A stretch of DNA of 64,000 nt, from NCBI GenBank assembly GCA_964016885.1, contig OZ024751.1:29450001-29514000 (forward strand), written 5' to 3'. The notes under the pieces are model-generated. The model did not search any database, was not told where the DNA came from, and worked only from the letters and a program-made list of their open reading frames with translations. A program made the position numbers and the translations under genes. The stretch is from Eledone cirrhosa (taxonomy: Eukaryota). This document shows positions 29,751 through 50,732 of this stretch, one piece after another; position 1 is the first letter of the stretch; each line of letters opens with the position of its first letter.

Positions 29751-30208
29751 AAATAAAGTAACAGGAGGCTGGACTGGTATAAATCCTTGAAAGGTTTATT
29801 ATACTATGATCATTTCAATGACCGGGTTACATATGAATCCGGTGATATCATCAGGTATTCGAAATATAACAAAGGAATATGTAAAAACCATGGGTCCGAA
29901 AAATCAGAGACAGAGAACCGACTGACCAACTAGCTGCTTTCACCTCGGCCAGTCGCCCTCAAAGTGATGGCTGCTCGTTATGCTAATTAGAAGAATGAGT
30001 AGCCATTACTTTGAGGGCGTCCTCTCTGTCTCTCTGTCGTCCTCTCTGTCTCTGATTTTTCGGACCCATGGTTTTTACATATTCCTTTGTTATATTTCGA
30101 ATACCTGATGATATCACCGGATTCATATGTAACCCGGTCATTGAAATGATCATAGTATAATAAACCTTTCAAAGATTTACACCAGTCCAGCCTCCTGTTA
30201 CTTTATTT
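29751..30208. mobile_element. Inverted-repeat element (166-bp arms, 2 mismatches) with a hammerhead motif in each arm; probable Penelope-like terminal repeat
   Basis: 29751-29916 is the reverse complement of 30043-30208; the 126-bp spacer holds its own hairpin. Confidence 0.85.
30101..30158 (+). ncRNA. Type I hammerhead ribozyme motif (mirror copy 29801-29858, minus strand)
   Basis: ATAC-CTGATGA-TATCACCGG..CCGGTCATT-GAAA-TGATCA-TA-GTAT: intact core, palindromic stem III, 4-bp proximal stem I. Confidence 0.75.
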
Positions 30209-30675
30209 TTATATATATGTATATAGATAGATACATATGCATATATATGTGTGTGTGTATATATATATATATGGTAGTTCAATGAGGAAAACTTTGTCTT
30301 TATAAAAATCCAGACATTATTTTCTGTTTCAAAATATTGCTGCTGTTATAGTTCTGCTCTAACTTATTTGGAGAATGTTGTGATATATATGGGGCTAATT
30401 GATATGATCCATGGAGTACATCACCATGATTATCATTTTACATCTGCTGTATCTAGCTTGCACTGGTTGGACAGGTTATTCTCAGTACACCATCTCTCTG
30501 CTTGTCACATTCCTTTGTCATCTCCTCTATATTTTTAATTAAATACACTGCCTATCTGTTTGATTTAATGTTTAATATAACCAAGACTTTTACATATATT
30601 GACCCAGGATATTGTTACTAACTTGACTAACTCTTATCTGAATGAGAAAAATGTATGTTAAAACAATCAAGACTT

Positions 30676-30875
30676 CTTTAGCATTTAAACCGGCTGTAAC
30701 TGGCCAGAGTTCTCTCAATTCTTTCTGTTCAAACCAGCTGTAACTCATACCACTCAAAATAAATAACATCAAAATCTCATAGATTCAATATTATGTGAAA
30801 TAATTATGTGAAGTAAAGTCTTTACTGTGAAAATACAACAGTAAATATAGAGTAATGTAAATGCTAAAGGGTTAA
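30676..30875 (-). mobile_element. piggyBac-like MITE
   Basis: CTTTAGCATTTA ... TAAATGCTAAAGGG-TTAA terminal inverted repeats. Confidence 0.82.
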
Positions 30876-32090
30876 ATGACTGTTAGTTAATATAAGATGA
30901 TGTGCTCATGTGCAGAGATGCTATGAAATAGCTTATAAAATATCCCCCAGATAGCCAGTAACTGGGAGATAAGGGTTTCAATTCCTCCTAGCAGCTGATG
31001 GCAGCTCCTTTTTCTGTCTTTACGTGTCTTTACCTTATTTTAGAAGCTATTTTACAGCATCTCCACACATGATGACATCATTCTTTATATCAACTTTATC
31101 TTCTCAGCACTTTGTAGAAACCCACGAGACCGGCTCCGTAGACAAATTGTTAATTATTTTTGAAAATTATAAGCAATGATTCTTGGCATTTGAAATGTGG
31201 TATTTAAAAGGGTGAAATATAAAATTGTAAATCCAGTCTACTAACATGATTAACTCTTACCTGTATGGAAAAAATGGATGTTGAAACAACCAAGATGTCT
31301 GAGGGAGCTTAAATAATTGTTAAATAGTTTTGAAAATCATAAGTAATGATTTTTTGGCATTCGAAATATGTTAATTAAAAGGGTAAAATATAAAATTGTA
31401 AATCCAGTGTACATCTGGAACCATGTTATTCTTGCTAATATGGCTAACTAATTCTTACCTGTATGGGAAAATGGATTTTAAAACAGCAATGGCAATTACA
31501 ACAAAGATGTTGTATCTTAGGTGATATTAAATCTAGTTGGTCATTGTAACTGAGTAATTACTTAGTTGGTCATCGGAGAACCTCTTGGGAAATGCTTTAT
31601 AATGAAAAAGATATGCAAAAACAACAACAACAAGAAAAAAACAACAACCAACAATGATAGAAGTTTCTGTAATGTCCATCTTTTTAATCTTTATATGTAT
31701 CCATCGTCCCCCATCTGGACATCAGTTCATTGTTATAAGGTGTGTAGGGTTAGACGCATGAAACAAATGGTAAGCATAAACATATTAGTCTAATCTGCAC
31801 GCCACTGCCTTGGTTACTAGCCTTAGTCATTGTAATGGTCAGAATGCCGTTAGGTTGATTAAAATCATTAAGCATGGCATTGAATATAGAAGTAAAATGT
31901 ATTGGCTTTAGTGACTTCAGAAAATGGCGCTATGTTCTATTGAGGATCAGTGTCCATTATATGAACAGAAGCATGCCAACAGTTACATGCAGCTAACTAG
32001 CAAAAAGCTCTCTCTAACCTCTTGGGAGTGATGAAAGCTTTTCAGATGTTTTGTCATCCAGTGGAAAATGATTGTTTCTAAACAATGGAA

Positions 32091-32663
32091 ATATAGCTAG
32101 AATCTTAAGAGCCAGTAAACTAAGAAGGTTCATATTCATAAACATATTTGATAACTAGTAGCTCTACCCGAGTTTGCCCAGAGTTTATTAATACTTAAAA
32201 TAGATATAATTTCATGGATTTACTATAAATAATTATTTCTACTTTTGTCTCAAGGCCAACAATTATCCCAATATGTTACTGGTACTTTATTTTATCAACA
32301 CCGTAAGGATGAAAGGCAAAGTTAACTTCGGCGGGATTTGAACTCTGGCTGTAAAGGCCGTACTCTATGCTGCAAAGCATGGCATCCGACCCTTCACCAA
32401 TATTGCCAATCCACACCATTATAAATAATGCATATATAGCTAGACTTTTAAAAGTCAGTAGCTAAGAATGTTCACATTCATGTACATATTTGATAACTTG
32501 TAGCTCTACCCGAGTTTTCCCAGAGTTTATTAATAATTAAAATAGATATAATCTCATGGATTTACTATAAATAATGTAAATATATCTAGACTTTTAAGAG
32601 CCAGTAGCTAATAAGGTTCACATTGATGAACATATTGAATAACTAGTAGCTCTACCTGAGTTT
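32091..32663. repeat. ~147-bp tandem repeat (~2.6 copies) interrupted by a SINE A (32233-32418, minus) with TSD TATAAATAAT
   Basis: TAGCTCTACCCGAGTTT recurs; TSD at 32224-32233 and 32420-32429. Confidence 0.85.
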
Positions 32664-48147: not shown

Positions 48148-48607
48148 TTGTTTATACTTTTGGCACAATTATCCCAGTGTATTACTGGTACTTTATTTTA
48201 TCGACTCCGTAAGGATGAAAGGCAAAGTTAACCTCGGCGGGATTTGAACTCAGTACTTAAAGCATGGTGTCCGACCCTCTCCCGATACTGCCAATCCACA
48301 GCAGGATATAATATATTATATATATATATAATATATATATAATATATTATATATGGCCTTGTGCCAAAAGTAGAAACAATTATATATATATAATATAATA
48401 TATATATGTATATAATATAATTGTTTCTACTTTTTGGCACAAGGCCAGCAATTACCCAGTACATTACTGGTACTTTATTTTATTGACCCCCGTAAGGATG
48501 AAAGGCAAAGTTAACCTCTGCGGGATTTGAACTCAGAATGGCAAAGGCCGTAACTCTGTGTCAAAGCATGGCGTCCGACCCTCTACCGTTACTGCCAATC
48601 CACCGCC
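48148..48607 (-). mobile_element. Two SINE family A copies plus an inverted tail fragment (48355-48381)
   Basis: Family A sequence at 48148-48300 and 48420-48607. Confidence 0.9.
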
Positions 48608-49574
48608 ATTGTATATGATATAATATGTATATAATATAATATATATATATATATATATATATATATATATCAGAAGAGCTCGTTTTAGTGTGAAAGCAGA
48701 AGTTGTTTGCGTAAACTTTTAATCTGTGCTTATAATAATAATGTGTGTCTGTGTGTGTGTGTGTCTGTGTGTGTGTGTGTGTGTGTGTGTGTGTGTGTGT
48801 GTCTGTGTGTGTGTGAGTATCAGAAATACATTGGCCAAACATTATAAGAGTATTAGAAAAGAAAGACAAATATAAAAAAAAAGATATATTGACAAAAATA
48901 TTTTGGATTGCTTACTTGATTGCCTCCTGATTCTTCTCTAGAGCTTTGCTAAACATGCCTGTGTGTGTGTGTGTATATATATATATATATATATAATTAT
49001 GTTGATGATGATGATAATGATGATATTATATATTGTATATTATATATACATAACTATATTATATATATATATATACATCTATATATATACATATATATAT
49101 ATATATATATATTATATATATATTATATATATATATATATATATATATATATATATATATATAGAGAGAGAGAGAGAGAGAGAGAGAGAAAGAGAGTAAG
49201 AGAGTAAGAGAGAATGTGAATCATATCTTGAGGAAGAAGTCTGATTCGCTCCACATACATTCTCAAATATAACATGATATGTTGAATATACTGCAGTATA
49301 TTATTCATATTTTAAGAGTGATTAGATTCCTTTGGGGGTTGATAAGCCTTCTTCTTGGTCTCATTATGTTGGTCTGGAACTAAATAGAGCAATTCAGAGC
49401 AAGTCTTCAGAGACCAAGATAGAACTCTCTGAAAATACCAAGTCTTACACTTTGTCACTTCAGTCTAGTTCATTGTTTCGCCTAGAATATGGAACACAGT
49501 AATAAAGTGCTACAAAGGAACACTAGTTGTTATAATGAAACTAATAAATTAGTATTAAATACATATAGAATACG

Positions 49575-49915
49575 AATAAATATCAGTTCTGTATGAGAAA
49601 GACATGGTTACTTGACCTGGGCCTATCTCACAACAAGATAACTTGTCTAAGCCATACCAGCATGGAAACATGGACGTTAAACAGTGATGTTGATGATGAT
49701 GATGATGATATATATATATCATAATCACTGCTTAATGTCCATTTTTCCATTCTAGGATGGGTTAGATGAGTTGTCCCGTTGTGAGATAGGCCAAGTCAGG
49801 TGACCATGTCTTGCTTATACTGAACTGATTTTGGCAATGGTTTTTACAGTTGGATGACTTCCCTAACACCAACAACATTTACTGTAAGTACTTGGGGCTT
49901 TTTGATGTGACACCT
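49575..49915. mobile_element. Two SINE B-related 3' portions arranged tail-to-tail
   Basis: 49584-49690 (+) is an imperfect reverse complement of 49723-49828 (-). Confidence 0.8.
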
Positions 49916-50408
49916 ACACAACCAAATTATATATATATATTCAATATAGAAATGGTTTCTACAGGACTAGAGCTGTTTCATTCGGAGGAAATCATCATAT
50001 ATGTCGACAGTCGATCGACAAGTTACAAGAAGTCATTCGTTTAATGACCAAGGAAACAATTTTTCCATTGGTATTTCTAATTACTAATACTATCTGTCGG
50101 TCACAAATCCAGGCACCAGGAGCAAAGCAAAATAAAGTGTCTTGCTGAAGGACATGACACAGCAGCTGGTCTGAGAATCGCATTCCCAACCTCGCAATTG
50201 CAAATCCAATTCTCTAACAACTCAGCCACGTGCCTTCACAAATGTGTGTGTGTGTTTATATATTTGCATATATATATATTTATATAATATATTTATGTAT
50301 ATATATATATATATATATATATGTAGGAGGTGAGTTTTATTGTAGTACAATAAAGCAATGCAGATATCGGATAAGAAGCACTCTACAGTTTGTAGGACTG
50401 GAGTATAC

Positions 50409-50732
50409 ATAATATAAGATCAAAAGATGGTTAAAGGAGTTCCATGTATTTTATTATGCGCATTTCAAAAACAAACATCATCATGCAACAATATTTGTGT
50501 TTTCATCAGATAAAACAGGAGAACATGATATGAAGGCTAAAAACACTTGTGGATAGTGCAGTTATATGTTGATTTAAAACTGCACTATCCACAAGTGTTT
50601 TTAGCCTTCATATCATGTTCTCCTGTTTTATCTGATGAAAACACAAATATTGTTGCATGATGATGTTTGTTTTTGAAATGCGCATAATAAAATACATGGA
50701 ACTCCTTTAACCATCTTTTGATCTTATATTAT
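50409..50732. mobile_element. Perfect 155-bp inverted repeat (14-nt loop) with a hammerhead motif in each arm
   Basis: 50409-50563 is the exact reverse complement of 50578-50732. Confidence 0.88.
50624..50694 (+). ncRNA. Type I hammerhead ribozyme motif (mirror copy 50447-50517, minus strand)
   Basis: TGTTTTAT-CTGATGA-AAACACAAATATTG..TGATGTTTGTTTTT-GAAA-TGCGCA-TA-ATAAAATA; intact core, long stem II, palindromic stem III. Confidence 0.82.

Follow-up and report, generated by a model that had tools for sequence, protein, structure and literature searches.

A 64,000-nucleotide (nt) stretch of the Eledone cirrhosa genome (assembly GCA_964016885.1, contig OZ024751.1, positions 29,450,001 to 29,514,000 of the forward strand; hereafter, the window) contains three predicted self-cutting hammerhead ribozymes of a known general kind, in each of which a C at position 10.4 lies opposite a pyrimidine at the fourth pair of helix II. 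They are probably tails of related Penelope elements, with slow hammerheads that are likely to be assisted by protein and to cut only as a pair joined through helix III, the mismatch having likely been kept by selection, perhaps as a docking or hinge point. As a predicted variant, the hammerhead with a C·pyrimidine (C·Y) mismatch is well supported by genome-wide counts and alignments.

Hammerhead motifs in the window

The window was scanned with a descriptor that ignored the state of pair 4. The scan returned exactly the three motifs listed in an initial annotation, with the locations and strands given there, together with two inverted copies, whereas 200 block shuffles averaged 0.005 matches and gave none that combined the 6-mer of helix III with TA. 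A covariance model built partly from these motifs found no additional copy inside the window. The hammerheads, all placed by the descriptor scan, and the insertions that contain them are as follows (bp, base pairs; pseudo-LTR, pseudo-long terminal repeat):

29607..30211, no strand assigned: family A insertion, with an inverted repeat at 29751-30211; left boundary approximate
29801..29858, minus strand: inverted family A hammerhead, in the left arm of the fold-back
30101..30158, plus strand: family A hammerhead; 4-bp helix I, CUGAUGA, GAAA-UGAUCA-UA; predicted cut after 30154
45497..45690, minus strand: family B insertion, a short pseudo-LTR with a terminal (TA)n run; the 5' end holds a hairpin (45632-45690)
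45541..45607, minus strand: family B hammerhead; 8-bp helix I, GAAA-UAUGUA-UA; predicted cut after 45549
50321..50737, no strand assigned: family C insertion, with a 97% inverted repeat at 50404-50737; both ends in (TA)n
50447..50517, minus strand: inverted family C hammerhead
50624..50694, plus strand: family C hammerhead; 8-bp helix I, GAAA-UGCGCA-UA; predicted cut after 50686

Helix II consists of a U·U opposition, 2 bp, C30115·C30139 and 5 bp in family A, of 3 bp, C45589·C45564 and 5 bp in family B, and of 3 bp, C50642·U50671 and up to 12 more pairs in family C. The claim that C faces C or U at the fourth pair of all three motifs thus held (C·C, C·C and C·U), as did the positions given for the predicted cleavage nucleotide H17 (30154, 45549 and 50686). 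Helix II had been described as divergent in sequence, yet paired; the arms indeed share only 3-8 of 18 bases and helix II covaries, but the first "pair" of the motif at 30101 is U·U. Two of the 6-mers are perfect palindromes, as had been noted, whereas the third, UAUGUA, had been called near-palindromic and is in RNA fully self-complementary via two G·U pairs.

The core (CUGANGA, GAAA and UH) is that of a type I hammerhead, and its columns are invariant in 16 of 16 representatives. Single motifs do not fold better than shuffled sequences (z from -0.84 to +0.46), so that the evidence comes from sequence comparison and not from folding energy. Rfam hammerhead families, e.g. Hammerhead_1, have the same core nucleotides. 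In the comparison with these families that the initial annotation had proposed, scans local to the three motifs matched no hammerhead family at E values up to 10, and a scan of the whole window yielded just microsatellite-driven miRNA matches among the best 150 of 438.

The mismatch at pair 4 of helix II

Throughout the 3.0-Gb genome, the pattern CUGAUGA-N22-44-GAAAU-N4-AUA matched 82,081 times, compared with 156 matches in the control; these and the following genome-wide counts refer to motif sites, including both arms of inversions, and not to independent events. C at 10.4 together with a pyrimidine at 11.4 occurred in 76,959 of the 82,081 core matches, which bears out the expectation that the mismatch is kept in a much larger alignment. 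Other bases at N7 added 37,121 looser matches (control: 3,698). Only 1.0% of 104,114 sites had a paired position 4 (G-C 638, C-G 395), and these versions appear scattered over many families and never constitute a major one, as expected from mutation after insertion.

For a closer comparison, 308 loci with 368 sites were reduced to 154 distinct sequences in 24 clusters, and pair 4 is C·Y in 20 of them. Of the 24, four have a C..G 6-mer (one with C·U, three paired) and were left out of the counts that follow, which refer to the other 20, of the U..A type. In all 20, C10.4 is conserved, and it is the sole invariant base of helices I and II; on a tree of the clusters, it changed not once, while every other column of helix II changed 3-8 times and N7, with 5 changes, is free to vary. 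Position 11.4 is C in 16, U in three and A in one cluster, 10.5 is always a purine and 10.6 always a pyrimidine. The first position of helix II, by comparison, is A-U, G·U or U·U in the window and of eight types over the 24 clusters. Hammerheads of the same genome with inserts of 2, 4, 7 or 8 nt do not have the mismatch at pair 4. Two further patterns were tried and rejected: one with S..S 6-mers, whose 1,040 matches are mostly other repeats, and one with S..S at pair 4, which could not tell paired from unpaired versions.

Sixteen chosen representatives were put into an anchored alignment, where pair 4 was unpaired in all 16 and all eight other pairs of helix II showed double changes. The covariation score of this alignment was 0.583, compared with 0.267 after shuffling and at most 0.205 after sliding. 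Similarly, a covariance model found 40 sites in 600 kb of evenly spaced sequence, with a covariation of 0.571 versus 0.271. Compensatory changes are present in both helices I and II, although it should be noted that the sequences are related and that the filter favoured pairing. Helix II thus also covaries in larger alignments, in agreement with the proposal of a diversified subclass with an extended helix II.

Insertions and their families

The three motifs are the 3' tails of separate 5'-truncated Penelope-like insertions, which belong to three high-copy families (first-look candidates: 1,580 copies of A, 992 of B and 707 of C). This contradicts the initial annotation in two respects, namely the treatment of 29801-50694 as one unit and the description of the sequences as unrelated: B and C agree at 17 of 20 bases around helix I, which indicates that families are related, and A agrees at 10-11 of 20. 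In the family A insertion, the left arm bears an extra tail that matches the start of a 1.9-kb unit, and an AT microsatellite is found at both ends; in the family C insertion, the left arm carries a tail of about 80 nt, and the sequence is the 3' end of a Hydra-like Penelope element. This layout of an inversion plus a tail is described for Penelope-like elements in the accessible part of PMC8557442. In a read-through RNA, the fold-backs of the window copies of A and C would form hairpins of 260-330 kcal/mol (computed) that bury the ribozyme, and the window copies are best seen as dead, 5'-truncated insertions. They are single or inverted and do not form the short tandem array with one hammerhead per unit that typifies non-LTR retrozymes.

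Family A consists of a non-coding unit of 1.9 kb, present in partial tandems and devoid of an open reading frame (ORF). At 30 loci, the region upstream of the unit contained mostly the hammerhead of a preceding unit and no linked ORF, with one unrelated reverse transcriptase (RT) match. Because it lacks coding sequence and usually follows the hammerhead of the preceding unit, family A is likely to be non-autonomous. The unit includes a G+C-rich island and a long (TTTC)n tract (L098:5868-7900), which may represent a captured promoter region. For family B, an apparent protein link at one locus (L191) was dismissed, as two insertions lie there about 900 nt of microsatellite apart. Families A and B are likely to be non-coding or truncated relatives of the family C element.

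Two further observations concern individual families. In shortened family B hammerheads (L211:849-911 and L215:1618-1680), the arms of helix II have become near-perfect inverted repeats, which suggests template switching within the hairpin. In contigs of run X4, the family C hammerhead region (window 50578-50732) shows seven minor variants of the A>G type and three of the T>C type, mostly at 5-15% of the depth, and most of them are nearly absent in X1; the pattern resembles A-to-I editing of fold-back RNA from both strands.

The protein of family C

The family C repeat extends upstream for about 1 kb into an intact RT/GIY-YIG ORF. Of the 89 scored matches, all at 97-100% identity, many retain an open frame of 821 codons. 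At 28 of 30 protein loci, a hammerhead is situated 3' of the ORF, and at 4 of 30 also 5' of it. In tandem arrangements, the unit comprises 3,704-3,864 nt, and the ORF is flanked by hammerheads, about 260 nt upstream and about 1 kb downstream. Family C has the pseudo-LTR location of the hammerhead in an RT/GIY-YIG element that PMC4209133 takes as characteristic.

According to the accessible part of PMC8557442, the Hydra clade is marked by RWK-like and DKT motifs, a C-terminal GIY-YIG domain, a CxCx5C linker and CxxC/CxH in the absence of CCHH. The family C protein has all of these, including RLRW (RLRWT), SDKT (HSDKT), YRDD and YFGST motifs, a linker of the sequence CNCRIKNKC, and CNLCLNEK..INRR..CLH as the CxxC..E..N..CxH motif. 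Insertion into (TA)n also agrees with this clade, whereas the unit exceeds the length of generally less than 3 kb, a feature that is descriptive rather than defining. A Pfam search did not recognise the full-length protein; one of seven fragments matched GIY-YIG with an E value of 0.0035, below the cut-off. By its motifs, the family C protein appears to be of the Hydra type of Penelope, and that this membership is based on motifs and not on a tree counts against the overall interpretation. Three further loci (L106, L190 and L304) encode proteins that are 51-61% identical to that of family C, with different C·C hammerheads 1.2-1.6 kb downstream. Elsewhere in the window (16114-16920, plus strand), a decayed Penelope-type RT remnant contains a 51-nt segment coding for GLYRDDGL four times in tandem and in frame.

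Helix III and a proposed mechanism

In 139 of 147 distinct sites, compensatory changes included, the 6-mer of helix III can pair with a copy of itself. The assignment of the motifs to the type I hammerheads of Penelope elements, with helix III as a palindrome, was supported. A monomer would have to spend about 3 kcal/mol (computed) to close helix III, which is too weak there, as in the dimer-type hammerheads of PMC4209133. Two copies of the 6-mer form a duplex of 8 bp, and the double hammerhead was computed to lie 12-20 kcal/mol below two monomer hammerheads. The copies mainly end 43-55 nt past the cut site, and none of 158 sampled copies ends within 10 nt of it, suggesting that the RNA used for reverse transcription had an uncleaved 3' hammerhead.

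In the proposed mechanism, a read-through transcript of tandem elements would hold both hammerheads, and their A-UNNNNA-U 8-mers would pair to form the double hammerhead with an 8-bp helix III, either between the two pseudo-LTR copies of the tandem transcript or between RNAs. The C10.4 mismatch would be the docking or hinge point that folds helix II onto helix I. Reverse transcription would have used RNA with an intact 3' hammerhead, and cutting would trim the 5' end or regulate the RNA level instead of creating the template end. A template with an uncut 3' hammerhead matches the anole Penelope element, whose hammerhead cuts only together with its protein, whose template is the uncut RNA, and for which cleavage is dispensable for insertion in vitro (PMC11167929).

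Alternative explanations

Several observations weigh against this interpretation. Among the intact cores in the evenly spaced 600 kb, C·Y accounted for 30 of 36, the others being G-C (3), C·A (2) and U-A (1). The 20 clusters are interrelated and represent roughly 6-8 deep lineages, and the cluster filter demanded pairing at neighbouring positions, which inflates the paired fraction. A partner column for the C or U at 11.4 was sought in the 20 clusters, and none covaries (best mutual information 0.34); U1.7 is present in 16 of the 20, yet is mostly Watson-Crick or wobble paired in helix I. In addition, families A and B have no demonstrated protein link, and the double hammerhead of A and B lies 15-16 kcal/mol above the cofold minimum, so that competing folds would win without help.

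That C10.4 is a tertiary contact or hinge within the RNA is, in our estimate, slightly short of an even chance. This role is ranked first because pair 4-5 of helix II is the place where loop 2 of canonical hammerheads is said to dock on helix I, from work by Martick and Scott in 2006 and O'Rourke in 2015. Alternatively, the C·Y mismatch and its flanking R-Y and Y-R pairs might form a recognition site for the RT-endonuclease of the element, used for RNA selection or ribozyme activation, instead of an RNA-RNA contact. The fixed base identities at 10.4, 10.5 and 10.6, which go beyond mere unpairing, the rarity of paired variants, and the retention of the mismatch in the non-coding family A, which must be copied in trans, would fit such a site, as would the protein requirement of the anole hammerhead (PMC11167929) and the presence of C at 10.4, there paired with G, in 16 of 26 published Hydra rows (counted by eye). 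However, other Hydra-clade hammerheads do not have the mismatch, and the anole protein is thought to bind at the downstream RT start site and not at helix II (PMC11167929), and protein recognition is regarded here as somewhat less likely than the RNA contact.

It is considerably less probable that the core has been kept for a non-catalytic reason, either as an RNA fold bound during retrotransposition or as a DNA promoter element of the pseudo-LTR, and that cleavage in vivo is negligible. The lack of copies that end near the cut would be explained, and PMC11167929 saw no reads ending at the cut and found cleavage unneeded in vitro; moreover, very low activity is reported in the accessible part of PMC4209133, and Naiad elements spread without canonical hammerheads. 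Nevertheless, only the catalytic core is invariant while N7 varies freely, helix III remains self-complementary, and helices I and II covary in the manner of paired RNA, for which a DNA element would have no use. More improbable still is the simple inheritance of the mismatch from a single ancestor, retained without a specific role or just as a general weakener of the helix. All clusters stem from one lineage with few deep branches, and the absence of a partner column is in line with it, but C10.4 has remained unchanged while each neighbouring column changed repeatedly and proteins diverged to 51-61% identity, and mere weakening of the helix would not require this particular mismatch at this particular position.

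Other hammerheads and repeats

Additional hammerhead types of the genome were noted at three loci (L193:6600-7750, L182:6440-7050 and L187:5250-6100). They include one with an 8-nt CUAAUUAG insert in retrozyme-like tandem repeats of roughly 530 nt, one with a 4-nt CUAG insert repeated at 467 nt, one with a 4-nt GAAC insert and G10.1-C11.1, and one with a 7-nt CCACUGG insert that resembles the published octopus Hydra element. In the window, an RT fragment with a YADD motif (36443-37351, plus strand), which we take to be an RTE-like long interspersed nuclear element, is abundant in flanking loci. A 48-nt tandem repeat of 6.8 copies (22736-23062), with a related 2-copy array at 24764-24860, yields an open frame of 16-residue repeats. 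In line with a cephalopod genome, which the composition also suggests, one named protein match was to Argonauta, at 37% identity.

Comparison with known hammerheads

Penelope hammerheads with a long helix II and a palindromic helix III have already been published (PMC4209133, in its accessible part), whereas the C·Y structural variant with its very high copy number is apparently undescribed. The literature covered on Penelope hammerheads, which excludes Lünse et al. 2017 itself and the supplements of a 2026 retrozyme preprint, contained no description of the mismatch; the accessible part of that preprint mentions neither cephalopods nor mismatches. Metagenome contigs (118 loci, 17 of 64 parts) and viral contigs (120 loci, 24 of 64 parts) were likewise scanned by pattern; among the 120 matches in each set, the former had one weak structured candidate and the latter none, which is no evidence of absence. 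One may tentatively propose that a Hydra-clade lineage carries an undescribed subclass (6-nt loopless palindrome, long helix II and obligatory C10.4·Y11.4) in more than 100,000 copies unseen by Rfam and by published descriptors, and that the ribozyme is switched on through the mismatch, either by the protein of the element or by a new contact between helices I and II; taken as a whole, this proposal is possible but doubtful. An invariant nucleotide outside the core, in a young family with intact ORFs, offers a precise mutation target for distinguishing activation of these weak Penelope hammerheads by an RNA contact from activation by protein. Standard searches overlook a hammerhead population that is among the largest in a genome, with about one site per 15-30 kb; much of it resides in fold-back repeats, from which long double-stranded RNA would arise.

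Like the motifs described here, the hammerheads of metazoan Penelope-like elements (Cervera and De la Peña 2014, PMC4209133, accessible part) are found in pseudo-LTRs, have a long helix II and a palindromic helix III for dimers, and occur in many sequence families per genome and as opposite-strand pairs 100-700 bp apart. A D. willistoni row of that study has the 6-nt palindrome UAGCUA, a U·U first position and A17. In contrast, the consensus given there has an extra base after A9 and G10.1-C11.1, neither of which is present in the Eledone motifs; no C·Y at pair 4 was seen among the 56 rows of its Fig. S3, and its descriptor (perfect helix II of 3-7 bp, loop of 3-10, gaaannuh) is unable to retrieve the Eledone motifs. 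The highest copy count in the accessible part is about 9,000 per genome, compared with more than 100,000 in Eledone. Small Penelope-associated variants with a reduced helix III that cleave as dimers, reported by Lünse et al. 2017 and summarised in PMC6765202 (accessible part), share the first feature with the Eledone motifs and the second with what is predicted for them.

In element type, there is a close likeness to the Hydra clade (Craig et al. 2021, PMC8557442, File S2; accessible part), the hammerheads of which are also of type I and near the 3' end, with a CUGANGA/GAAA core, a short helix III and a helix II that often begins with U·U or some other opposition than G-C; the protein motifs, the insertion into (TA)n and the presence of inverted copies that are 5'-truncated and carry a tail are likewise shared. 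The 26 published rows, which include one octopus family, have an insert of 7-8 nt starting with C15.2, and none of them has C·Y at pair 4 or a 6-nt loopless palindrome. The Eledone variant, by contrast, has a 6-nt U..A insert, a helix II of 8-15 bp with C·Y, a 3' untranslated region of about 1 kb and a unit of 3.7-3.9 kb instead of less than 3 kb. As C10.4 is paired to G in 16 of these rows, the C itself may date far back, with its partner lost only in a particular lineage. The Poseidon element PAc (Frangieh et al. 2024, PMC11167929) belongs to a different clade, and its hammerhead overlaps the start codon, while that of Eledone family C lies about 260 nt upstream of the ORF start; nevertheless, the two share insertion ends downstream of the cut, two end points that define the tail, and AT-rich targets.

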